In this document: positions 2,180 through 41,909 of the stretch, piece after piece
Position numbering within the stretch: position 1 is the first letter of the stretch
Layout: each line of letters starts with the position of its first letter
Assembly: GCA_964613815.1 (NCBI GenBank)
Contig: CAZTKG010000005.1
Coordinates: 22,026 to 86,025 of the forward strand
DNA: 64,000 nt
Origin: an uncultured Gammaproteobacteria bacterium
Lineage (GTDB): Bacteria > Patescibacteriota > Patescibacteriia > UBA9934
Direction of reading: 5' to 3'
Program-made: the position numbers and the translations under genes
The notes under the pieces: model-generated
Seen by the model: the letters and a program-made list of their open reading frames with translations, nothing else
Database searches by the model: none
What the model was told of the DNA's origin: nothing

Positions 2180-2785
2180 CTATTTGTCAAGCGTTTTGAT
2201 GAACTCAGCTATCTTGATGACGCCCTGCTCGTAGACCTGGTTTTGGTCGATGTCATCTGCATTGATGATGACGTTGAAATTTTGATGGTCGTAGGCGTCG
2301 ATGTTGAAGTAATTTTTGTAGCGTTTGATCTCTGACTGCTTTCGTTGTTCGTTTGCATCGATCACCTCCTGCAGGGATGAGAACGTGTCCCTGAGGTGGT
2401 TACCGTCTTCGTTCCAGATCCGCTCTGCGCCCGCTTCTGGTGAAACGGATAGGAAGACGGTGACTTTTGGGTCTACGACGAAGTGCCACGATGTTCGGCC
2501 TTCGAATACTCCTCTTGTGCGTGTTTTTGACGTCTCTTTTTGGTACTCGTCCACTTCCCTGTCGACGGACTCGTCGGTTTCTAGGAGCTTTTGGAATTCC
2601 AATGTTGTCATTCCGCGTTCTGCAGCTTTTTTTCTGAAGATCTCTCCTGCGTAGAGTCTTGGGATGTCTAGATCTGATGCGAGGCGCTTTGCAAAGGTGG
2701 ACTTCCCTGCTCCGATATCTCCGCTGATGGTGATGCGGAGCGGGTCGGCAGCTTTTAGGATATTGATGGCTTCTTCGGGGGTCAT
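2180..2785 (-). CDS. Cytidylate kinase-like P-loop nucleotide kinase (archaeal-type Cytidylate_kin2 family)
   Basis: P-loop ITISGDIGAGKSTFAKRLA plus the downstream AGEIFRKKA motif typical of family-2 CMP kinases. Confidence 0.65.
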   Translation of the reverse strand: MTPEEAINILKAADPLRITISGDIGAGKSTFAKRLASDLDIPRLYAGEIFRKKAAERGMTTLEFQKLLETDESVDREVDEYQKETSKTRTRGVFEGRTSWHFVVDPKVTVFLSVSPEAGAERIWNEDGNHLRDTFSSLQEVIDANEQRKQSEIKRYKNYFNIDAYDHQNFNVIINADDIDQNQVYEQGVIKIAEFIKTLDK

Positions 2786-2786
2786 A

Positions 2787-3692
2787 TTATGCTGGTAGCG
2801 AATCTAGGATGTCTGATAACTCTGACGGTAGAGGAGCGGTGAATGTTTGGGATGTGCCGTCTGGGAGTGGGAGGGTTAATTCTGCGGCGTGGAGGAAGAG
2901 GCGGTTTAGTGGGAGAGGTTTTTGGCTTGTGTTTTTGTAGAGCATGTCGCCGACGACTTGGTGACCTAGGGCGAACATGTGGACGCGGATTTGGTTTGTG
3001 CGGCCGGTTTTGATGTCGACGTCTAGGAGCGTGTGGTGGTGGAAGCGTTTTTTTACGGTGAAGTTTGTGACTGCTTCTTTGCCGCCTTGCTCTAAGGTTT
3101 TTGCGGCCATGCGGCCGGTTATTTTTGATCTCGCGATTGGAAAGTTCACTTCGTCTTCGTCCCTTTCGATAACGCCATAGACAAGCACTTCGTATTTTTT
3201 GATGACTTCACGGTTTTTGAAGGCGTTTTTTAGATGCACGAACATCTCTTGTGTCTTTGCTACCGCTAGGACGCCGGATGCCTGCTTGTCTAGGCGGTGA
3301 ACTAGACCTGGACGGATTGGATTTTCACCTACTTCTGATATTGCTGGGAGGTATTTTACGAGGGCTTCAGTGAGGGTTGGCTCGTGGGAGGAGTCTGTTG
3401 GGTGGATGAGGAGGCCGGCTTGTTTGTTTAGGATGAGGAGATCTTCTGTTTCGTGGAGAATATTTAGCTCAGGGGTATCCCAGTCAGCCTGTTTAGGGGC
3501 GAAGAAGTCGGGGCTGTATGTGATATCTGCTTCTGCGGTAATTTTGAGTTTTGTTTGTGCTGGAGCGGCGTTCATGAGGACTGCGCCGGATTCGACTGCT
3601 TTTGCCGCTGCTCCCCTGCTAATGCCAAGGCTGACTGCGACGGCCTTGTCGAGTCTGGTTGGTTCGGTGATGTTGAGATCTAGTTTTTTCAT
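2787..3692 (-). CDS. RluA/RluD-family 23S rRNA pseudouridine synthase with N-terminal S4-like domain
   Basis: Catalytic motif HRLDKQASGVLAVAKT. The listed ORF extends to 3770, but the likely start is MKKLDLNI at 3692. The 26 upstream codons lie inside a palindromic repeat element. Confidence 0.8.
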   Translation of the reverse strand: MKKLDLNITEPTRLDKAVAVSLGISRGAAAKAVESGAVLMNAAPAQTKLKITAEADITYSPDFFAPKQADWDTPELNILHETEDLLILNKQAGLLIHPTDSSHEPTLTEALVKYLPAISEVGENPIRPGLVHRLDKQASGVLAVAKTQEMFVHLKNAFKNREVIKKYEVLVYGVIERDEDEVNFPIARSKITGRMAAKTLEQGGKEAVTNFTVKKRFHHHTLLDVDIKTGRTNQIRVHMFALGHQVVGDMLYKNTSQKPLPLNRLFLHAAELTLPLPDGTSQTFTAPLPSELSDILDSLPA

Positions 3693-3727
3693 GTGGTGAG
3701 TATGCCGCGAATACCTTTGTTGATCAA

Positions 3728-3782
3728 GGGATCTCTTCCCATCTCGAGCGAAGTCGAGAGATCTCTCCACTCCCTTCGGTCG
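3728..3782. repeat. Palindromic intergenic element, copy A (degenerate) of a dispersed family
   Basis: CCCATCTCGAG...GAGAGATCTCTCCAC...GGTCGAGATGG shares arms and the central GGAGAGATCTCTCC palindrome with copies at 15427, 39415, 41825 and 62033. Confidence 0.5.
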
Positions 3783-3883
3783 GTCGAGATGGAAATGCGT
3801 TAGGGTTGAGTTTTTCCGATCTTACGCTTACGATGTAAGGGTTGAACGATCCCTTCTTATGTGATTGAATGGGTATTCAAGGC

Positions 3884-3959
3884 GGGCGCGTAGCTCAGCG
3901 GTTAGAGCGCGGAGCTTATATCTCCGTGGTCGATGGTTCGAATCCATCCGCGCCCACCA
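3884..3959 (+). tRNA. tRNA-Ile with apparent UAU anticodon (tRNA-Ile2 type)
   Basis: GGGCGCGTAGCTCAGCGGTTAGAGCGCGGAGCTTATATCTCCGTGGTCGATGGTTCGAATCCATCCGCGCCCACCA. The cloverleaf is canonical: AC stem CGGAG/CTCCG, loop CUUAUAU giving anticodon UAU. The body resembles tRNA-Ile(GAU). Confidence 0.75.
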
Positions 3960-4176: not shown

Positions 4177-4359
4177 TTGTTCGAGTTTATGATTTACGCA
4201 GTTGTCTTGCTTATGGTATGTGCTGGGTATTTCGGTTATGAACTTGTTCGTAAGCGGACTTTTCATGCTGCTTGGACGTTTATGGCTTGGTTTTCTTGTT
4301 TGCTTGGGAGTTCATTTGTGACATTTGTTGTTTGGGAGACGGTTCGAGGGGTCGTCTAG
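4177..4359 (+). CDS. Small hydrophobic protein (60 aa)
   Basis: Two predicted TM segments; immediately upstream of a second membrane protein gene. Confidence 0.3.
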   Translation: MFEFMIYAVVLLMVCAGYFGYELVRKRTFHAAWTFMAWFSCLLGSSFVTFVVWETVRGVV

Positions 4360-4362
4360 TTT

Positions 4363-4806
4363 ATGCCGGAATTACTTGGGTATACAATCATGATTGCAGT
4401 GCTCTGGTTTTTGATATTTTGGATCCTTGGTGGGGTCTTTTTTGCTATTGTGACGCTGGCTCGAGTGACGAAACTTCGGAAGGCTCGGTTTAGTTGTTTG
4501 TTTACTCTTTTGTCGATGTCGTTTGCGTATGGCGCGGCTTATAGCGGGATGTATTTTGGCGCGAAACGGATTCGGTTTTGTTTGCATGAGGCTTCGGCGT
4601 TTGTGGATGTACTGGCGGCGATTTTTGGGTGCGGTATTTTGGAGATGATTGCGAGTGGCGGACTTTGGTTTATTGGGCTTTTGGCGTGTGGGTTTGTGGT
4701 TTTGATTGTTTCGCGGGCGGAGAATCAGAGTTGGGTGGACAATGATATTCAGGAGCAGGAGCCGGTTTTCGTGGAGGACATGGAGCGGAGGGATGTGGTG
4801 ATTTAG
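4363..4806 (+). CDS. Hypothetical membrane protein (147 aa, 4 TM segments, acidic C-terminal tail)
   Basis: The hydrophobic profile is the only evidence; no recognisable family. Confidence 0.45.
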   Translation: MPELLGYTIMIAVLWFLIFWILGGVFFAIVTLARVTKLRKARFSCLFTLLSMSFAYGAAYSGMYFGAKRIRFCLHEASAFVDVLAAIFGCGILEMIASGGLWFIGLLACGFVVLIVSRAENQSWVDNDIQEQEPVFVEDMERRDVVI

Positions 4807-13448: not shown

Positions 13449-15362
13449 TTGAATTGCAATTTTATTATGGTTCAAAAACAACCATCTAAACGCCCGAAGG
13501 CGTCTTCTTCGTCATCTCATCGACGAACTAATTCATCTCGACCTGTTGCTCGTAAGACCACTCGATCCTCTGCTCGTCCTGCTGGACGGACTGTTCGACG
13601 ACCTAGTCATACGACTCAACGTCATTCTCGACCTGCAACGCATCGTCGACCTCATGCTAAGCGAACGCAAACGTTTCATGCTCCGAATGGAGAAGCGGTT
13701 CGCGTTATTGTGCTTGGTGGACTTGAGGAGGTTGGGCGTAACTGCACTTTGATTGAGTATAAGAACGATATTATCTTGATCGACCTCGGACTTGAGTTCC
13801 CAGAGGAGGACATGCCCGGTATTGACTACATCATTCCGAACATGGACTACCTTAAAGGGAAGGAGAAAAATGTTCGTGGCGTGATTATTACGCATGGTCA
13901 CTATGACCACATTGGGGGGATTCCTCACTGTGTGCCGAATATTGGGTCGCCGACGGTGTATGCGCTTCCGATTGCGGCGGGAATTATTAAGAAACGACAG
14001 ACTGACTACAAGACTTCTAAAGTTGATGTAAAGGATATTACGATTGACAGTGAGTTGAAGCTTGGTGTCTTTAAAGTTCACTTTTTCCATATTAATCACA
14101 ACATTCCTGATAGTGCGGGGATCGTGATTGAGACTCCGGCTGGGACGATTTGTCACACGGGGGACTGGAAGTTTGATTATCATCCTGTCGGCACAAAGCC
14201 TGCTGACTTTGGGAAGATCGCTCGTGTTGGAGAAGAAGGTGTTCTGCTTTTGATGGGAGACTCTACGAACGCGATGTGTGAGGGGCATCAGACGAGTGAG
14301 AAAGTTATTGGCGAAGAGCTGCGCGGGATTATTGAGAAAGCTCCTGGACGTGTGATTTTGGGGACATTCGCTTCCCTGCTCTCTCGCGTGAAGCAGATTA
14401 TTGAGATTTCTGAGACGCTTGGTCGTAAGGTTGCGCTTGATGGGTACTCCATGAAGATGAACGTTGAGATCGCTCGGAATCTTGGGTTCATTCATGCGAA
14501 GGATAGTACGCTGATTAAGATGGATAAGGTGAAGAACTATCCTGATGATAAGATTACGATTGTTTGCACAGGCGCTCAGGGGGAGCAACGAGCGGCGCTT
14601 AGTCGGATTGCTCGGGATGAGCATCGGTTTATTCGCGTATGTAAGACAGATACTGTTGTATTTTCTAGCTCTGTTGTTCCTGGAAATGAAGGATCTGTTC
14701 AGCGGCTTATTGATATTTTCTATCGAAAGCGAGCGAAGGTTATTCATAAGGATATTATGGACGTGCACGCTGGTGGGCATGCGAAGAAGGAAGATATTAA
14801 GCTTATGCTTTCGCTTTTCCGACCGAAGTATTACATGCCGATTGAGGGGAATCACTTTATGCTTCGGGAGAATGCTGAGGTTGCCTATTCACTTGGGTAC
14901 AAAGAGAAGGACGTGTTTGTTGGAGACAATGGGCAAGTACTTGAGCTTTGGAAGGATAAGAAGGGTGAAGGGAATGCTCGGCTGACGAAGGAGAAGGTTC
15001 CGACTGATTATGTGTTTGTGGACGGGCTTGGTGTTGGGGATGTGAGTGAGGTCGTTTTGCGCGATCGGAATGCGCTTGCTGAGGATGGGATCGTTGTGGT
15101 TATTACGCAGGTTGAGAAGCGGACTGGAAAGGTCGTGAGTATGCCGGATATTGTGAGTCGTGGGTTTGTGCATATGAAGGAGAACCAGAAGCTGATTAAT
15201 GACACGCGGAAGCTTGTGAAGCAGATTTCTACGAATTCGGATAAGAAGTCTACGGCTGATGTGCAGGCGATTCGGACGAAGATTCGGGATGATGTTGGGA
15301 AGTTCTTGTTTAAGAAGACGGAGCGTCGGCCGATGATTTTACCTGTTATTATTGAGGTTTAG
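13449..15362 (+). CDS. rnj: Ribonuclease J (metallo-beta-lactamase/beta-CASP) with ~80-aa basic Arg/Ser/His-rich N-terminal extension
   Basis: VIVLGGLEEVGRNCTLIEY, HGHYDHIGG and the beta-CASP and C-terminal domains are present. The N-terminus is low-complexity (SSSSSHRRTNSSRPVARKTTRSSARPAGRTVRRPSH...). Confidence 0.9.
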   Translation: MNCNFIMVQKQPSKRPKASSSSSHRRTNSSRPVARKTTRSSARPAGRTVRRPSHTTQRHSRPATHRRPHAKRTQTFHAPNGEAVRVIVLGGLEEVGRNCTLIEYKNDIILIDLGLEFPEEDMPGIDYIIPNMDYLKGKEKNVRGVIITHGHYDHIGGIPHCVPNIGSPTVYALPIAAGIIKKRQTDYKTSKVDVKDITIDSELKLGVFKVHFFHINHNIPDSAGIVIETPAGTICHTGDWKFDYHPVGTKPADFGKIARVGEEGVLLLMGDSTNAMCEGHQTSEKVIGEELRGIIEKAPGRVILGTFASLLSRVKQIIEISETLGRKVALDGYSMKMNVEIARNLGFIHAKDSTLIKMDKVKNYPDDKITIVCTGAQGEQRAALSRIARDEHRFIRVCKTDTVVFSSSVVPGNEGSVQRLIDIFYRKRAKVIHKDIMDVHAGGHAKKEDIKLMLSLFRPKYYMPIEGNHFMLRENAEVAYSLGYKEKDVFVGDNGQVLELWKDKKGEGNARLTKEKVPTDYVFVDGLGVGDVSEVVLRDRNALAEDGIVVVITQVEKRTGKVVSMPDIVSRGFVHMKENQKLINDTRKLVKQISTNSDKKSTADVQAIRTKIRDDVGKFLFKKTERRPMILPVIIEV

Positions 15363-15380
15363 GGGGACTTGAGAGCGAAA

Positions 15381-15406
15381 GCCGCCCGGAAGGGCGGTTT
15401 TTGTTT
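15381..15406 (+). terminator. Intrinsic terminator (GCCGCCCGGAAGGGCGG + TTTTTGTTTT) after rnj
   Basis: Stem-loop followed by a T-run. Confidence 0.6.
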
Positions 15407-15426
15407 TGGTTTTCATGTCTTCCCTG

Positions 15427-15472
15427 CCCCATCTCGACCCTGCGGAGAGATCTCTCCACTTCGGTCGAGATG
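15427..15472. repeat. Palindromic intergenic element, copy B (compact form)
   Basis: CCCCATCTCGACCCTGCGGAGAGATCTCTCCACTTCGGTCGAGATG, preceded by the conserved flank CTTCCCTGCCCC. Confidence 0.55.
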
Positions 15473-15569
15473 AGGTTCATTTGCCCTTGCTACCTTGACA
15501 AAATAGTTATTTTGTGATATCTTTCGACTTCGTACTTAGTGATATTTTGATGGTAGTTCGTGAGGCTTT

Positions 15570-16427
15570 TTGGAGGCTTTGCGGATTCCCAGCAAGGGAT
15601 GTCGACTTCTTTCACCCCCCCCTCCAACTGGAGATAGCACGACCTCTTTCCTCCTCCTCGTTCTGGCCGCTTGCGGCGGCGATGTCCCCTGCCTCGATTC
15701 CGACAGCTTCGGCTCGTCCGATGGCGGCACTGTGATGTCGTCGCCGGACTTCGGCGACGACATCTTCGACGATCTCGATGACCTCGACGACGATGACAGC
15801 GGCGTCGACGCGCCCGACTTCGACTTCGGCGGGACCGACTCCGACACCTACGTCCCCGACGGCGAGTGCGAGTATCTCGTCGAGACCTGGGATGGCGACA
15901 TCATGATGACGAACTACCCGTTCATCGACGCCAGCAGCCGATCGCCCCAGGGCTTGTCCGAGCCCGGCTACCAGGAGGTGCTGCGCGTCCGCTACGGCGC
16001 CAGCAACGAGAACTGCCCGCCGATGTACTTCGGTGGCCTCACCTTGTACATCGGGGCCACCGACATCCACGAGACCTACTGGTACGAGGACGTCGAGGGC
16101 ATCGACGCCGTCAACAACATGACCGGTGAGCAGATCGGCTTCGGCCGCTTCTCAGTGTGTCACCTGAACGGCGGTGGCTGCCCGCAGTCGACTGGCCACT
16201 TCAGCACCACGCCGGACGAGGAGTACGGCCGCTGGTTCGACGGTGTGACCGCCCTGGGCGGCGAGACCGTGTCGATCAGCTTCTGGGTCGACCTCTCCGG
16301 CATCGGCGAGGGCGACACCTTCAAGCTGACGTTCGGTCCGGATCAGATGAGCATCTCGGACGACGGCTCCCAGTGGTTCACCTGGATGTTCGACTCCGTC
16401 GGCGCCAGCGATCCGATGGAGTTCTGA
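15570..16427 (+). CDS. Hypothetical acidic lipoprotein-like protein in a ~65% GC island (start uncertain; listed ORF begins with TTG)
   Basis: Strong GC3 codon bias in this frame, the lipobox-like FLLLVLAACGG and a run DDLDDLDDDDSGVD. An 8-nt C homopolymer at 15615-15622 lies near the start and could be a frameshift site. Confidence 0.4.
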   Translation: MEALRIPSKGCRLLSPPPPTGDSTTSFLLLVLAACGGDVPCLDSDSFGSSDGGTVMSSPDFGDDIFDDLDDLDDDDSGVDAPDFDFGGTDSDTYVPDGECEYLVETWDGDIMMTNYPFIDASSRSPQGLSEPGYQEVLRVRYGASNENCPPMYFGGLTLYIGATDIHETYWYEDVEGIDAVNNMTGEQIGFGRFSVCHLNGGGCPQSTGHFSTTPDEEYGRWFDGVTALGGETVSISFWVDLSGIGEGDTFKLTFGPDQMSISDDGSQWFTWMFDSVGASDPMEF

Positions 16428-16535
16428 TCTCTCGATCCCTCCCCGCCCAAGCCCCCGCGCTTGCGTGCGGGGGTTTCTTTTATTGACATTTTTGCTATTT
16501 ATGCATAGGATTTGGAGAGCTGACAACCTGGAGTT

Positions 16536-17141
16536 TTGATGATCAGCTTTCTTGTTCTCTCCCTGAATGCTGCTGCGGTTGGCGTGCCTCAGATGTGGCG
16601 CGAGGGATATCCTGCGGTCGATGACGAGACCGTCCCGCATACCCCGGTCGCTGCTGCGCCCGATGAGCCCATCGACTACGATGCGCTGATGTCTGGAGCG
16701 GATACCTACACGTATCTTGCCTCCGGCCTGGGGAGCCTCGCGTACCCCTGCGGGGTTCGTTCTCGTGACAATTTCCTGACGCCGCCTGCTGGCTTGCGGG
16801 ATGGCCATGGTCCGGTTTGGGTTCGGCGACTGACCAGCCCGGCAGCGGATGATGTGCATGAGTTCTGCAGCATCCATGTATTCGGAGACTGCGAGACGCC
16901 GATCAACATCGGCCTGATTCGTGGGCATGGCTACCAGGGGCAGGTCGTGTGGTTCAAGGATGGGCTCGAGGGCGAGGTGGATCGCCTGGTACAGCTCGAT
17001 CACAATGACTGGTTTCTGCAGATCAGCAACCCGGATATCGATGGTGGCGAGATCCATCTGATGACGTTCGGGACGTTCTCGCATATCGGCCTCCTCCCCA
17101 CCGGCTACCGCTCGGTGGAGACCCCTCCGCTACTTCCGTAG
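16536..17141 (+). CDS. Hypothetical secreted protein (201 aa) in the same high-GC island
   Basis: N-terminal signal-like MMISFLVLSLNAAAVGVPQ and high GC3. A terminator follows at 17150-17176. Confidence 0.4.
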   Translation: MMISFLVLSLNAAAVGVPQMWREGYPAVDDETVPHTPVAAAPDEPIDYDALMSGADTYTYLASGLGSLAYPCGVRSRDNFLTPPAGLRDGHGPVWVRRLTSPAADDVHEFCSIHVFGDCETPINIGLIRGHGYQGQVVWFKDGLEGEVDRLVQLDHNDWFLQISNPDIDGGEIHLMTFGTFSHIGLLPTGYRSVETPPLLP

Positions 17142-17149
17142 TAGCGCGC

Positions 17150-17176
17150 TGCTCGCGATGTATCGCGGGTTTTTTG
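17150..17176 (+). terminator. Intrinsic terminator (CTCGCGATGTATCGCGGG + TTTTTT)
   Basis: Hairpin plus T-run closing the high-GC island. Confidence 0.5.
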
Positions 17177-17224
17177 ATCGAATCTAAAGCATGGTACGAT
17201 GCGATTGATAAATTTATCTGTATT

Positions 17225-18202
17225 ATGAAGATTTTGACTGGAATTCGTCCGACGAATATTTTGCATGTTGGGAATTTGTTTGGGGCGCTTTTGCCTGCGG
17301 CGGCGCTTCAGCGGGAGCATGACTTGTTTATGATGGTCGCTGATTATCATGCGCTTACGACGTTGCATGATGCGGATCAGCTGCGGGATAATGTACTGTT
17401 TGCGACGGCGGCCTATATAGCTGCGGGGATTGATCCGAAGAAGACGGTGCTTTTTCAGCAGTCTCGGGTTAGTGCGCATGCAGAGCTTGCCTGGGTTTTG
17501 CAGACGATTGCGTATATGGGGGAAGCTAGTCGGATGACGCAGTTTAAGGATAAGAGTGATGGGAAGAAGCGGATCCCCGTTGGACTGTTTAGCTATCCTG
17601 TTTTGATGGCGGCGGATATTCTTCTCTACAGCGCTGATGCGGTTCCTGTGGGAGCGGATCAGAAGCAGCATTTGGAGTTTGCTCGGGATTTGGCTGGGCG
17701 GTTTAATTCGATGTTTGGGGAGACATTTACGGTGCCGGAGCCTCGGATTCGGGAGAGTGGGGCTGCGAAGATTATGAGTTTGCAGGATCCTTCGCGGAAG
17801 ATGAGCAAGAGCGATCCGAGTGCGAAGAGTTATTTGTCGATTATGGATGAGCCGGATGTTGTTGCGAAGAAGATTCGGAGTGCGGTGACGGATAGTGAGC
17901 GTGGGATCACTGCCAGTCCTGATCGCGCTGGACTATTTAATCTTTTGACGTTGTATTCGCTTTGTAACGGCGAGAGTGTGGGGACCATCTCTGGGAAGTA
18001 TGCAGATAAAGGGATGAAGGAATTGAAGGATGATTTGGCGGAGCAGGTTGTGGCGGTGCTAGCGCCTATTCAGGCGGGTGTTCGTACGCTCCTGGATGAC
18101 AAGGATGAGCTTTTGCGGGTGATTGAACTGGGGTCTCGGGCGGCTCGGGAGGTTGCGGATGCGAAGATGAAGGTTGTAAAAGAGCGCATTGGGGTAATTT
18201 GA
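17225..18202 (+). CDS. trpS: Tryptophanyl-tRNA synthetase
   Basis: Class I motifs: the HVGN variant of HIGH (ILHVGNLFGAL) and KMSKS (RKMSKSDPS). The true start is probably MKILTGIRPT at 17225 (listed ORF starts 17174). Confidence 0.9.
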   Translation: MKILTGIRPTNILHVGNLFGALLPAAALQREHDLFMMVADYHALTTLHDADQLRDNVLFATAAYIAAGIDPKKTVLFQQSRVSAHAELAWVLQTIAYMGEASRMTQFKDKSDGKKRIPVGLFSYPVLMAADILLYSADAVPVGADQKQHLEFARDLAGRFNSMFGETFTVPEPRIRESGAAKIMSLQDPSRKMSKSDPSAKSYLSIMDEPDVVAKKIRSAVTDSERGITASPDRAGLFNLLTLYSLCNGESVGTISGKYADKGMKELKDDLAEQVVAVLAPIQAGVRTLLDDKDELLRVIELGSRAAREVADAKMKVVKERIGVI

Positions 18203-18240: not shown

Positions 18241-18270
18241 GTGTTTGATGTGTTGACAAATCTTTGATTT

Positions 18271-18990
18271 GTGTTTATTTTTTCAGGGTCACCTTGTTGT
18301 GACTTCCTCAAACCTCCCGTTCCTTCCACGGAGCTATCCTTGTCTAGCATTTCTGTTCTTCCTGCCCAAAGGTCTAGCGCGCGCCAAGGTGCGTACCGGG
18401 CCTCGCTGATGCTGCGACTGCTCTCTCCCAGTGAGCTCAGGTCCAATCTCTCCCACGCTGGCGGCGATCAGCGCTCTTCGAGCGTACGCGCTGCCATGAG
18501 CCGCGTGAAGTGGCACCGATTCACCGAGCGTGTTCTCGATGTCCTCGTCGCCCAGGTCAACACCCGACTCGCCGCAGATCTGACCGATGAGCTTCGGTCG
18601 ACGCTGGTGCTGATGGGTGTTTCGCCCGAGCGCATGCCCTCTTCCGGCACCGACACCTCCGAAGAGCCGTCCGACCAGATCCAGGCGGTTTCTGCGGCAT
18701 CGACGCCGAACATCCTCGCGTTCGCTGCGACGCCGACGAAGGCTGTGTTCGACTGGATCGAGATGGTCGTCGAGACCGAATACGCCATGGAGCGTCGAGT
18801 TGGTCCGGGGATCGCGCGCACCAAGTACGGGCACGGATCTCGGACCATCCGCGCGGTCGAACGATTCCGTGCCGGTCAGCTCCCGCCCCGTCGCTTCAGC
18901 ACCTCGCTGTGCCGCTCGGCTCGCGCGGACTTCGACGTCACCATCCGGTCGCTGACCTTCGATGTGACGCACAGGCCGCTTCGGGCGTAG
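18271..18990 (+). CDS. Hypothetical protein in a second high-GC island (start uncertain; possibly Met at ~18495)
   Basis: High GC3 in the plus frame. The overlapping minus-strand ORF 18334..19086 is Arg-rich and looks like a GC artefact. A terminator-like hairpin GTCCCCGATCGTTTGGTCGGGGGAC plus T-run sits at ~19018-19052. Confidence 0.35.
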   Translation: MFIFSGSPCCDFLKPPVPSTELSLSSISVLPAQRSSARQGAYRASLMLRLLSPSELRSNLSHAGGDQRSSSVRAAMSRVKWHRFTERVLDVLVAQVNTRLAADLTDELRSTLVLMGVSPERMPSSGTDTSEEPSDQIQAVSAASTPNILAFAATPTKAVFDWIEMVVETEYAMERRVGPGIARTKYGHGSRTIRAVERFRAGQLPPRRFSTSLCRSARADFDVTIRSLTFDVTHRPLRA

Positions 18991-19054
18991 CGCTGCGCAA
19001 CGTCTACCGTGTATGATTCTGTCCCCGATCGTTTGGTCGGGGGACTTTTTTATT

Positions 19055-20455
19055 TTAGTATGCGCCTCTTGAGAAGATGACGACAATCGGTGTCTTTACC
19101 AAAATGATGAGGTCTAGCCATGGAGACCAATTTTCGATGTAGTGCATATCTAGTGCTACCTCCTCGTCGAAGTCTAGGTCTGCCCGTCCTGATGTTTGTG
19201 CCATTCCTGATATTCCCGGCTTGATAGTGAGGACCTTCTTTTGATGCGGTTTGTAGCTGTCTACCTCTTTTGGCAAGTGCGGACGCGGGCCTACGAGACT
19301 TAGCTTTCCTGACAGGACGAGGAAGAATTCTGGGAGTTCGTCGATGGAGTATTTTCTGATGAAGCGGCCTACGCGGGTGATGCGGGGGTCGTTTTCTAGT
19401 TTGAATAGCGGAGAACCATCGCGGTCGTTGCCGTATTTTTTGATGAACTCTGGGTCAAATCTGAATTTGTGGGCGTCGTGGACCATGGAGCGGAATTTGA
19501 AGTGGTCGTAGACTTTGCCGCCCTGCCCTACTCTTTTGTGGATGAAGAAAACGTTTCCTGGGCTTTCGATGAAGAGGACTAGTGCGGTGAGGAGTTGGAT
19601 TGGGAGGGTTATTGTGATGAGGATGAGAGACGCGATGATGTCGAAGATGCGTTTGTAAATAGCTCCCCATCCGGCGAGAGGAGTCTTTGGGATTTCTATG
19701 ACGGGTTGGCCGGCGAGGGTGTGCACGATTGGGGTGATGGCGGCGCCTGGGAACATGTCGGCTGAGTAGAGGAAGCTGAGATGTTCGGTGTCGGAGAATT
19801 GTTTGATTTTGTGCGCTTCTTCTCTTGTTGTGTTTGGGTTGGCGAGAATGATGGCGTCGATTTTGCCTTGGCGTTTTAGTTTGAGAATGCGTTCTTTTGT
19901 TTCCTCGGTGAATCGTGCGACGTGGGCAGTGACCCTGTAGCCGAGCTTGGGATCTTTTTTGAAATATTCTTCTAGGGTGTTTGCGATCTTGGTTTTTCCT
20001 ATGATGATGACGGAGGTCGCCCCAGTTCCTTTGGCGAGGAGGGATCTTCGGATGGCTCTTGTGAGCATGCGGAAGATGAAGACGGTGAATATTGAAAGGA
20101 GCCAAACGGCTAGGACGATGAATCGGGAATCGAAGAGTTCTCTTGAAAAGAAGCTGATCGCGAGAACGAAGGCGATTCCGGTTGAGCATGCGAGAGCGAT
20201 GCGACTGAACTCTACGGCAGCGCCTCTTTCGCGCGTTGAATAGAGGCCGGAGAATGCGAATATGATGAGCCAGGCGAGGGCGAAGGTGATTGATATTTCG
20301 ATGTACTCATCCATTGGCAGGTCGAAGATGATTGGGCGGACCTGCGCGGCTTGCGCGGAGAAACGGATGAGGTAGGCGATGGCTGCGGCGCCGATGAGGG
20401 CGATGAAATCTAGGGGGACCTGGAGTGCCGTGAAGAAAAGTTGCGTGCGTTTCAT
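19055..20455 (-). CDS. Undecaprenyl-phosphate sugar phosphotransferase (WbaP/bacterial sugar transferase family)
   Basis: Multi-TM N-terminus and C-terminal sugar-transferase motifs (PLFKLENDPRITRVGRFIRKYSIDELPEFFLVLSGKLSLVGPRP). An extended -10 TGATATAAT lies ~10 nt upstream of the start. Confidence 0.85.
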   Translation of the reverse strand: MKRTQLFFTALQVPLDFIALIGAAAIAYLIRFSAQAAQVRPIIFDLPMDEYIEISITFALAWLIIFAFSGLYSTRERGAAVEFSRIALACSTGIAFVLAISFFSRELFDSRFIVLAVWLLSIFTVFIFRMLTRAIRRSLLAKGTGATSVIIIGKTKIANTLEEYFKKDPKLGYRVTAHVARFTEETKERILKLKRQGKIDAIILANPNTTREEAHKIKQFSDTEHLSFLYSADMFPGAAITPIVHTLAGQPVIEIPKTPLAGWGAIYKRIFDIIASLILITITLPIQLLTALVLFIESPGNVFFIHKRVGQGGKVYDHFKFRSMVHDAHKFRFDPEFIKKYGNDRDGSPLFKLENDPRITRVGRFIRKYSIDELPEFFLVLSGKLSLVGPRPHLPKEVDSYKPHQKKVLTIKPGISGMAQTSGRADLDFDEEVALDMHYIENWSPWLDLIILVKTPIVVIFSRGAY

Positions 20456-20479
20456 ACCGCTTGATTATATCACTGAATA

Positions 20480-20503
20480 CAAAAACACCCTCTTGTGAGG
20501 GTG
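20480..20503 (-). terminator. Terminator of rnpB (CACCCTC-ACAA-GAGGGTG + TTTTTG on minus strand)
   Basis: Hairpin directly 3' of the RNase P RNA P1 stem. Confidence 0.5.
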
Positions 20504-20509
20504 ACTTTG

Positions 20510-20926
20510 TATTCAGGAACGTCATAAGCCGAATTCTGTGATCCGCAAGCGGATGACGATCATTTATCTAGGACGACTGTTGCCAGCCGCCTCGAGCGAG
20601 CTACCAAATTTGCTCTTGCACCAGAATGGGTTTACCACGTACTTGCATCACTGCAAGACGAAGGGCGTAGCCGGTATGTGATAGACACATGCGACATCTC
20701 CCTACTTTTCACGTTTGATCCCCGAGGGGATTAGTATAGTCTCTGCGGCACTTTCCCTAGGTTTCATCAGACTGCCAAGGATAATGATACCAATCCTTCA
20801 CGTTCTGATTATGTCCTGGTCGCTGTTAGCGACGTTCTTTTTTGACACGGGTTACCCGCGTGCCAGGTGTTCGGACTTTCCTCCAGACTTCGAAAAGACT
20901 GGCGATCGTCTCGGTTCCTGAACGTG
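20510..20926 (-). ncRNA. rnpB: RNase P RNA (bacterial type A)
   Basis: On the minus strand: GGAGGAAAGTCCGAAC (P4 5' strand), GGTAACCCG, GGTAAACCCATTCTGGTGCAAGAGCAAATTTGG, ACAGAATTCGGCTTATG (P4 3' strand), and the P1 pairing GTTCAGGAAC/GTTCCTGAAT. Confidence 0.8.
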
Positions 20927-21112: not shown

Positions 21113-21188
21113 TGGGCACGTGGAGGTAATGGCAACCTCACTGTTTTTGTCATCCAGAGATGCGGGTTCGAGTCCCGTCGTGTCCACC
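21113..21188 (+). tRNA. tRNA-like gene (76 nt, encoded CCA, G3-U70, A73); the anticodon stem has only 3 bp, so possibly a pseudogene or regulatory tRNA-like element
   Basis: GGGCACGTGGAGGTAATGGCAACCTCACTGTTTTTGTCATCCAGAGATGCGGGTTCGAGTCCCGTCGTGTCCACCA. Good acceptor, D-arm and T-arm; AC arm CUGUU-UUUGUCA-UCCAG is poorly paired. Preceded by a promoter-like TTGACA-17-TTCAAT at ~20978-21006 and an upstream segment complementary to its 5' half. Confidence 0.4.
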
Positions 21189-39414: not shown

Positions 39415-39499
39415 TCTCCCCTGCCCCATCTCGACCTTGTGGAGAGATCTTGCCTTTTTGATGTCCGCAGAGATCTCTCCACAAGGTCGAGATGGGAAT
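39415..39499. repeat. Palindromic intergenic element, copy C (long hairpin form, perfect 26-bp arms, 18-nt loop)
   Basis: CCCATCTCGACCTTGTGGAGAGATCT-tgcctttttgatgtccgc-AGAGATCTCTCCACAAGGTCGAGATGGG. Confidence 0.6.
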
Positions 39500-41824: not shown

Positions 41825-41909
41825 CTTCCCTGCCCCATCTCGACCTTGTGGAGAGATCTTGCCTTTTTGATGATCGCGGAGATCTCTCCACTTCGGTCGA
41901 GATGGGAAT
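41825..41909. repeat. Palindromic intergenic element, copy D
   Basis: CTTCCCTGCCCCATCTCGACCTTGTGGAGAGATCT...AGATCTCTCCACTTCGGTCGAGATGGGAAT. The arms differ at TTGT versus GAAG. Confidence 0.6.

Follow-up and report, generated by a model that had tools for sequence, protein, structure and literature searches.

A GC-rich two-gene islet at the rnj-trpS junction of a patescibacterial genome encodes a protein of an undescribed acidic, lipoprotein-like family

DNA acquired by bacteria is usually poorer in guanine and cytosine (GC) than the genome that receives it. For the Patescibacteria, genomic islands and single-gene transfers have been described that move mostly within the group, possibly by way of competence and pili (PMC12455944), and the lgr genes of Protochlamydia amoebophila are described as a GC-rich gene family in a lower-GC symbiont that is linked to a genomic island (PMC2216083). 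Here, we describe an islet of two GC-rich genes, designated A and B, that lies between rnj, which encodes RNase J, and trpS in a 64,000-nt stretch of DNA from an uncultured bacterium assigned to the Patescibacteriia (assembly GCA_964613815.1, contig CAZTKG010000005.1, positions 22,026 to 86,025). This whole stretch is referred to below as the window, and coordinates given without a contig or locus name are those of the window. Like the islands known from Patescibacteria, the islet is lineage-specific, atypical in composition, and flanked by core genes, and its site is empty in most relatives and filled with varied cargo in others (PMC12455944). It is clear from our results that the 1.86-kb rnj-trpS interval is an insertion, and we hold with moderate confidence the joint reading that it is a recently acquired accessory islet, made of two single-gene units that entered at a hotspot from a pool of genes rich in GC at the third codon position (GC3), and that A would be a surface lipoprotein.

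The insertion is apparent from a comparison of 80 recovered loci that encode relatives of RNase J. In those whose RNase J is 64-84% identical to that of the window, the order oppA-rnj-trpS is kept, with a sugar transferase further on, and among the metagenomes from which the closest of these relatives derive are groundwater filter fractions of 0.1 and 0.2 µm. The interval in the window measures 1863 nt (15363 to 17224), between an rnj stop codon that ends at 15362 and a trpS ATG at 17225, the latter start assigned by alignment with relatives, versus a gap of 54-103 nt in 11 of the loci (L087, L088, L090-92, L094, L097, L098, L100, L103, and L105), which amount to about six distinct lineages after the merging of near-identical contigs. 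As these empty sites are found at every depth of relatedness, an ancestral short spacer followed by a later insertion is the simplest reading. The preliminary description of this DNA had suspected a recent acquisition and had looked to relatives with the same genes at the same GC content as the sign of an ancient resident; A and B are encoded in none of the related loci compared, which supports acquisition. A scan of species-representative genomes with TrpS returned only relatives at no more than 50% identity, with no synteny information.

The same junction has taken up other cargo elsewhere. In the closest relative (L086, RNase J 84% identical), it holds a complete diversity-generating retroelement (DGR) of 2.9 kb (L086:2432-5332), with a reverse transcriptase (RT) gene at 2432-3520 on the minus strand, an Avd gene at 3438-3782 (NF033474, E 4e-18), and two 128-nt repeats, a template (TR) at 3823-3950 and a variable copy (VR) at 4252-4379, all mismatches between which fall at template adenines. 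The variable repeat is located at the C-terminus of a GC-rich open reading frame (ORF) of 360 aa, and the GC content of this target gene is 0.63, versus 0.44-0.46 for the accompanying RT and Avd genes. A 484-aa ORF lies at the junction in L089 and small ORFs in L093, L095, and L099. The presence of unrelated cargo in different relatives indicates that the rnj-trpS junction is an insertion hotspot. The following junction, between trpS and the RNase P RNA gene (rnpB), is about 100 nt long in its empty state, seen in L103, and is filled with mutually unrelated GC-rich segments in the window and in L086, L087, L089, L095, L097, and L105. The islet was also considered as a remnant of the L086 retroelement and as a DGR target gene, and both candidates were rejected: no match below E 0.1 was obtained when the L086 RT and Avd were compared with the window by tblastn, and the islet has no RT, Avd, or TR/VR, nor is there any long repeat pair involving 15.5-17.2 kb.

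The composition of the islet departs sharply from that of its neighbors. In 300-nt windows, GC content is 0.44-0.51 in rnj, 0.64-0.66 over 15650-16400, 0.58 at the spacer between A and B, 0.59-0.64 over 16550-17150, and 0.48-0.52 in trpS, with a mean of 0.510 for the whole window and a standard deviation of 0.053 for windows of 201 nt; mean values are 0.649 over 15643-16406 and 0.608 over 16601-17080, and the per-gene values are 0.64 for ORF A, 0.61 for ORF B, and 0.47-0.51 for rnj and trpS. The jump at 15.5-17.1 kb that had been read from the sequence by eye is, therefore, reproduced by sliding-window computation. The difference is greatest at the third codon position. From the first to the third position (GC1, GC2, GC3), GC content runs 0.58, 0.47, and 0.87 in ORF A (GC3 0.93 from codon 56 on) and 0.67, 0.45, and 0.71 in ORF B, versus 0.57, 0.38, and 0.48 in rnj and 0.57, 0.40, and 0.55 in trpS. 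These patterns favor the plus frames of both ORFs, in agreement with their initial designation as coding. The GC-rich DNA here yields long open frames on either strand, and the minus-strand ORF at 16152-17084 was rightly set aside as an artifact, as it is rich in Arg (12.9%), shows an antisense codon-position pattern, and runs through the terminator and promoter between A and B. The strand asymmetry of the host is also missing from the islands, where GC skew is about -0.1 to 0 versus +0.2 to +0.5 in the flanks; ORF A uses C at 0.64 and G at 0.27 of third positions, versus 0.12 and 0.36 in rnj on the same strand. This lack of host skew fits a short residence. Comparable GC islands are present elsewhere in the window at 18380-18994, 47587-48931, and 63240-63900.

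Four independent assemblies of the same population, three from Joint Genome Institute (JGI) samples and one from Logan, match the window at 99.97-100% identity where they overlap it; a 43.7-kb JGI contig is the only one to span the whole rnj-to-trpS interval, the other assemblies covering parts of it. The agreement of these assemblies across the junctions implies that they are not assembly chimeras. Over 20.8 kb, the sole difference between the window and JGI contig Ga0105010_1000553 is an A/T at 15933, which changes Ser122 of A to Cys. Contig Ga0105015_1020034 departs from the window at one position, 19264.

The preliminary description took the islet as a single 1.7-kb block, and this part of it has to be revised, as the interval instead comprises two single-gene units with different codon usage, separated by AT-rich spacers that hold host-type promoter-like sites. 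All of the features that follow are on the plus strand, except for the palindromic element, to which no strand is assigned. The left edge of the inserted interval is formed by a terminator-like hairpin for rnj (15372..15407), with a 16-pair stem and a T run, after which comes a palindromic element resembling repetitive extragenic palindromes and miniature inverted-repeat transposable elements (15423..15475; CCCCATCTCGACC...GGAGAGATCTCTCC...GGTCGAGATG), which is the copy B of the preliminary description. Unit A consists of a promoter-like site at 15495..15523 (TTGACA, 17 nt, TATCTT, with TG before the -10 hexamer and 10/12 matches), ORF A at 15570..16427 (285 aa from TTG 15570), and a terminator-like hairpin at 16449..16476 (12 pairs, 8 of them GC, and then a T run). 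Unit B consists of a promoter-like site at 16483..16511 (TTGACA, 17 nt, TAGGAT), ORF B at 16539..17141 (200 aa from ATG 16539, with GGAG 5 nt upstream), and a terminator-like hairpin at 17151..17170, which forms the right edge of the insertion and corresponds to the terminator already proposed to close the island. The same design, a promoter-like site (perfect TTGACA, 17-nt spacer, TAnnnT), an ORF, and a hairpin with a T run, recurs in a third unit, C, beyond trpS, and 5 promoter-like sites were observed in the region versus 1.5 expected. The GC excess is restricted to the ORFs: outside the hairpin stems, the spacers are AT-rich (GC 0.29-0.36; 0.36 for the A/B spacer outside the terminator stem), and both promoters and spacers are host-like. 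GC3 also differs between the units, at 0.91-0.93 for A and 0.71 for B, and this difference in codon usage argues for separate origins or separate arrival times. Integron-like cassettes were rejected as a model for this arrangement, as the palindromic element occurs once, upstream of A, rather than after each ORF, and the units have their own promoter-like sites; no integrase is present among the ORFs listed and scanned over 11.5-20.5 kb. Structured RNA in the islands was likewise rejected, there being no Rfam match even at E=1.

Judged by sequence comparison, protein A belongs to an undescribed family whose members are acidic and lipoprotein-like. Its layout runs from an N-terminal extension through a hydrophobic stretch with a lipobox and a linker rich in acidic residues (about aa 36-97) to a C-terminal domain of ~185 aa, here termed the A-domain (aa 94-285; 15849..16424). 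The lipobox, L32-A33-A34-C35, follows SFLLLV, with Cys35 at nt 15672-15674 and a mean hydropathy of 1.9-2.4 for residues 22-37. With a net charge of -44, this lipobox, and an Asp/Leu run (DDLDDLDDDDSGVD), the protein has both of the motifs and the lipoprotein-like, acidic character first attributed to it. While a word-seeded search of 5.8 billion protein clusters with A returned only A itself, residues 94-285, scanned with HMMER in full against 1.84 billion representative proteins, gave 19 hits at E<1e-3. These are a near-identical copy of A (P0001), 17 lipoprotein-like homologs (P0003-P0010 and P0012-P0020), which define the family, and P0011, which was rejected as a spurious repeat protein. 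The best true relative, P0003, is 40% identical to A (E 1.9e-29, phmmer), five hits other than the copy of A itself fall at E<1e-10, and tblastn of A to the loci encoding relatives gave E values of 1e-10 to 1e-25. A word-seeded search with the family profile was swamped by low-complexity acidic words and recovered P0020 and P0001 only.

The 17 relatives share a common design, with a short hydrophobic N-terminus that ends in a Cys, a linker rich in Asp, Thr, Glu, and Gly, and a domain of ~185 aa. The lipobox Cys is kept in 16/17 of them and is always preceded by a small residue. Within the domain, the recurring motifs are a Cys at the start, TWDG, PG..EVLR, a second Cys, TD..T.W, TGE..G, AG.T, and an Asp, often with LVF at the end; D165, W171, and G231 are invariant in the family alignment, and C35, C100, N115, C149, G186, and D249 are at least 90% conserved. 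Protein A is full length, with all of the conserved motifs and no internal stop. Neither A nor its family matches Pfam, NCBIfam, PHROGs, PADLOC, or PDB sequences, and the same searches with B were also negative. The initial view that neither protein resembles a known family is, therefore, correct with respect to curated families and incomplete with respect to A, which has the 17 uncharacterized homologs described here.

The A-domain is found together with a second lipoprotein module, the N-domain, which precedes it in P0004 and P0007 and follows it in P0005. At L177:4014-5552, the two are encoded by separate, adjacent lipoprotein genes with a GC3 of about 0.95, and an N-domain lipoprotein with a MopE-type metal-binding motif is encoded in the hotspot downstream of trpS in L095, which is closely related to the window organism. 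That the two domains are fused in some genomes and encoded side by side elsewhere implies a functional link between them, and the modules probably work together. The L177 pair adjoins an IS3-type transposase, an MmeI-type restriction-modification gene, and a Cas4-like gene on a contig with a GC content of 0.42-0.52.

High GC3 is not peculiar to A. All members for which DNA could be retrieved are GC3-rich genes (0.75-0.98), and the contexts that could be measured have a GC content of 0.41-0.55. P0004 has a GC3 of 0.98 in L168 (metagenome-assembled genome [MAG] GCA_964344145.1), where the backbone is at 0.55-0.63 (S1, FtsH, T2SSE, TsaE, and TsaD) and neighboring orphan genes are at 0.81-0.94; P0007 has a GC3 of 0.75 in L172 (MAG GCA_030688135.1), with a backbone of 0.30 measured on T2SSE only; and P0018 and the adjacent N-domain gene in L177 stand at 0.97 and 0.94 over a backbone of 0.33-0.57. 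In the short contigs L166, L167, L170, and L171, GC content falls to 0.46-0.54 in one or both flanks of the family gene, and the short contigs L173 and L174 are GC-rich or moderately so throughout and cannot decide the question of a donor. No uniformly high-GC genome carrying the family was seen among the retrieved loci, and for this reason we prefer a GC3-rich accessory pool to an ordinary high-GC donor as the source. In the clade, as sampled by 26 loci, 19% of GC-island positions versus 71% of backbone positions find a translated match in a different lineage. No other family is shared as widely as the lipoproteins with A- and N-domains in the 60 GC islands drawn from all fetched loci. The use of GC1 and GC2 to discriminate between a donor and synonymous enrichment was calibrated on 122 TrpS genes and rejected, as it fails across protein families. 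The elevated GC content is seen clade-wide and only within ORFs.

In addition to these results, L168:1-21239 and L172:1-10663 are mosaics of housekeeping genes interleaved with GC3-rich orphans, as is the window, and the orphans in these MAG contigs include a paralog pair (L168 13049-14032 and 14170-15162) and a Ser/Thr kinase. A second family common to the GC-rich islands of two lineages was found at L087:4166-4792 and L134:2688-3572 (47% identity over 110 aa by tblastx), with no Pfam match.

Given this evidence, the reading that we favor would be as follows. Two independent single-gene units would have entered an ancestral rnj-trpS junction of ~55-100 nt that serves as a hotspot in an ultra-small clade resembling the Candidate Phyla Radiation (CPR)/Patescibacteria. 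Both genes would be recent, and the likeliest route would be DNA uptake followed by recombination, and the putative source would be a GC3-rich pool of accessory genes that related genomes have in common, in preference to an ordinary high-GC bacterium. Protein A, with a signal peptide and a lipobox Cys, is predicted to be lipid-anchored on the cell membrane, and its long, strongly acidic, and probably disordered linker would display a Cys-containing, probably beta-rich domain of about 185 aa on the cell surface, where its role would most likely be surface binding or attachment to a partner cell or substrate. The beta-rich nature of the A-domain and its part in surface binding are weak inferences. 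Unit B would contribute an orphan acidic protein, possibly exported.

Several observations weigh against this reading. Between 15363 and 17224, there are no mobility genes, at the borders of the islet there are no flanking direct repeats of at least 10 nt, and no tRNA gene is found at those borders, the nearest being at 21114; lacking an integrase, direct repeats, and a border tRNA, the route of insertion is a matter of conjecture. A motif scan of the 64-kb window and of several relatives' loci gave no credible candidate for lgt or lspA, and two single-sequence AlphaFold models were unusable, with predicted local distance difference test (pLDDT) scores of 35 and 39. The ACG at the position of the family start and the atypical extension, discussed below, mean that A may be poorly translated or decaying, and B, which is without any homolog, could be a non-functional open frame. 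Lastly, the shared position of the family genes in L168 and L172 could reflect long residence at a GC content that has stayed high, and the case for recent arrival as a generalization would then be weaker.

The details of the start of A are as follows. Its family members start directly at the hydrophobic core (e.g., MLILIALAC and MFFLSLFAC), and in the relatives' genes a GGAGG precedes the ATG by about 4 nt. At the corresponding position, the window reads GGAG-ATAGC-ACG (15630..15641, plus strand), with the ACG at 15639, 5 nt after the GGAG; this is the probable former start codon, from which MTSFLLLVLAAC would match the N-termini of the family. The only in-frame starts are TTG 15570 and TTG 15579, and initiation at TTG adds 23 residues before the hydrophobic core that include R, K, and R but also an Asp and the PPPP encoded by a homopolymer of eight C residues (C8; 15615..15622, plus strand), which is read in frame, as Pro codons, downstream of the TTG start and ahead of the lipobox. 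We infer that an original ATG became ACG and that translation is now either initiated upstream or weak. GC content begins to rise at about 15600-15640, which puts the C8 tract near the left end of the acquired DNA.

This leads to the possibility that one or both ORFs are non-functional, A having lost its start and B being a chance open frame in GC-rich DNA. The loss of the family start, the absence of any homolog of B, and the capacity of GC-rich DNA to open long frames on both strands are in keeping with this explanation, which we nevertheless consider unlikely, as A retains its full length and every motif without an internal stop, the open frame of B is longer than in 99.7% of shuffles, and codon-position GC favors the plus frames. 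Indirect support for B as a coding sequence also comes from the GGAG 5 nt before its ATG, which is the start used by gene callers, and from its own promoter-like site and hairpin. Protein B has no relative in the word-seeded search of the protein clusters, and none was found among viral contigs and plasmids by exact 8-residue patterns or tblastn, which are weak tests; it was also rejected as a divergent A-domain or N-domain, with an hhalign probability below 1%. As initially described, B is acidic, with a net charge of -16. The signal peptide first assigned to it can be considered only plausible, as the N-terminus is hydrophobic and lacks a basic n-region, and B may be exported.

Slightly less probable again is that a single 1.7-kb fragment came by classical transfer from an ordinary high-GC bacterium, for instance a host or neighbor of ~65-70% GC. 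The GC3 of 0.93 in A, the lack of host strand skew in the island, and the absence of A and B from relatives would all be expected from such an event, and the GC-rich pyrE/pyrF-like genes of the window have the appearance of ordinary metabolic acquisitions. However, B has no homolog among the 5.8 billion clusters searched by words and A has only 17 among 1.84 billion proteins, and the homologs of A lie in mosaic contexts of moderate or low GC content wherever there was sufficient flanking sequence, L173 and L174 being indecisive. A single fragment would also not be expected to contain two genes with a GC3 of 0.91 and 0.71, nor a spacer of 0.36 GC with a host-type TTGACA-17 site between them. 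The high-GC donor implied by the preliminary description was thus not found, and the family genes are instead GC3-rich within surroundings of 0.41-0.55 GC.

Less probable still is the explanation that these genes are long-term accessory residents whose high GC3 is actively maintained, for instance through GC-biased gene conversion at hotspots of recombination or through selection on codon or mRNA composition; composition would then be uninformative on how recently they arrived, a corollary that we find equally doubtful. P0004 and P0007, which are 43% identical to each other, are both located after T2SSE, which is 70% identical between the two genomes, and their GC3 exceeds that of the backbone by about 0.43-0.45 in both cases (0.98 vs 0.55 and 0.75 vs 0.30), as might be expected of genes that have stayed in place under such maintenance. 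The recurrence of islands beside the same housekeeping genes across the clade and the restriction of the excess to ORFs also point in this direction. On the other hand, independent insertions at a post-T2SSE hotspot would account for L168 and L172 just as well, polymorphism is limited to 2 single-nucleotide differences in about 21 kb, and the rnj-trpS junction is empty in most relatives, none of which has A or B, so that at least this copy is an insertion.

Finally, although the design of unit A allows phase variation, in that the C8 tract stands in frame after the only available starts and a slip of one C in either direction would break the TTG-initiated lipoprotein frame, and although there is an analogy in the phase-variable lipoproteins of wall-less bacteria such as the Vlp and Vsa proteins of Mycoplasma, switching of A by slippage, as first suggested from the presence of this tract near the start of the gene, is very improbable, since C8 is the only G/C run of at least 8 in the window versus 2.8 expected from shuffles, does not differ in length between the window and JGI contig Ga0105010_1000553, the only two assemblies to cover it, is missing from relatives, which start at the hydrophobic core, and may merely mark the left junction of the acquired DNA.

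Returning to the recently acquired islet, we raise, as a possibility and not as a probability, the broader idea that the clade uses a dedicated accessory pool of modular acidic lipoproteins, a DGR target, and orphans, with a GC3 of 0.75-0.98 regardless of a backbone GC of 0.41-0.55, inserted as promoter-ORF-terminator units at a few junctions; these might be rnj|trpS, trpS|rnpB, and the position after T2SSE, an assignment put forward equally tentatively. If true, such a pool would imply either a GC-rich vector or partner that is missing from current databases or some local process, for instance GC-biased gene conversion, and it would reverse the usual rule that acquired DNA is AT-rich.

Unit C, which fills the junction after trpS in the window (18253..19043, plus strand), has a promoter-like site at 18253-18281 (TTGACA-17-TATTTT), an ORF from 18340 or 18409 to 18990 with a GC content of 0.63-0.66, and a hairpin at 19022-19043. 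Its protein is basic (net charge +6) and without a signal peptide, and it has no homologs in searches that included Pfam, NCBIfam, PHROGs, PADLOC, and PDB sequences. Beyond it, the block at 19055-20921, which contains a wbaP-like sugar transferase gene and the RNase P RNA gene, is inverted relative to L086, L090, L097, and L103, where the order is trpS, rnpB(+), and wbaP(+); the strand skew of the inverted block already fits its present orientation.

The palindromic element upstream of unit A belongs to a family with 5 matches in the window versus 0.04 expected, at 3736-3768, 15423-15475, 39420-39496, 41829-41908, and 62047-62120. Its arms are of the form CCCATCTCGACCTTGTGGAGAGATCT, with a loop of ~20 nt in some copies and abutting arms in others, and two direct copies flank a 2.4-kb segment at 39.4-41.9 kb. 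The family is absent from all other fetched loci and present only in the conspecific contig, which also encodes a T4SS-pilin-family protein.

Of the other GC-rich segments, the one at 47587-48931 (GC 0.62) encodes a pyrE-like phosphoribosyltransferase and a pyrF-like orotidine monophosphate decarboxylase on the minus strand and adjoins a tRNA-Ala gene; it is probably another acquisition, with a GC skew that is reduced yet still positive. The segment at 63240-64000 (GC 0.60), near the end of the window, has an ORF at 63268-63990 on the minus strand with no Pfam, PHROG, or PADLOC match. Coding repeats rich in Lys and Ala, of the AKKKAAPKK type, are located at 49695-50200, directly before three tRNA-like genes at 50318-50648, two of which receive no anticodon from ARAGORN and are yet identified as tRNA by Rfam. 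The window also contains RNase P RNA and 5S rRNA genes and a 23S rRNA gene of 3544 nt (54965-58508) with a group I intron at 55479-55782. Together with the pilin-family protein of the conspecific contig and the filter fractions that yielded the closest relatives, these genes suggest a CPR/Patescibacteria-like organism.

Bacteria of the CPR/Patescibacteria live attached to other cells, and almost nothing is known of the surface proteins involved. Protein A is a concrete candidate for a role in the recognition of a partner or substrate, as it is lineage-specific and recent and its domain is repeatedly fused or paired with a second module. The rnj-trpS and trpS-rnpB junctions, whose empty state is known, provide a comparative handle on gene gain without integrases in reduced genomes. 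In addition, a GC excess confined to ORFs in several independent genomes would, if general, bear on how bacterial base composition is set.

A comparison with known systems places these findings in context. Phase-variable surface lipoproteins are known from Mycoplasma (Vlp and Vsa), and homopolymer switches are known from Neisseria and Haemophilus. The islet is similar to these contingency loci in having a homopolymer near the 5' end of A, a predicted surface lipoprotein gene, and differs from them in that the C8 tract is constant in two assemblies, not above chance, and missing in family members. It shares with the DGR cassette of L086 the rnj-trpS junction and the presence of a GC-rich gene, which in L086 is the target gene; it differs from that cassette in that the window is without RT, Avd, and TR/VR and neither A nor B is related to the L086 target. 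Protein A resembles the lipoproteins processed by Lgt and signal peptidase II in having a hydrophobic stretch that ends in L-A-A-C, and it departs from them in its uncharacterized domain, the ACG at the family start, and the 23-residue extension if translation begins at TTG. As with the lgr genes, the genes here are markedly richer in GC than the genome and form a family, while lgr genes are about 5.6 kb in length and encode leucine-rich-repeat proteins, and the present ones are lipoprotein and orphan genes of 0.6-1.2 kb in another group, with no sequence relation (PMC2216083). Like the patescibacterial islands, the islet has no dedicated integrase, as fits uptake and recombination (PMC12455944). 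It differs from the usual genomic islands in being richer in GC than its host, with the excess confined to ORFs and no donor identified. The acquisition described here is, therefore, an event of an ordinary kind, and it is the direction of its difference in composition from the host that is unusual.

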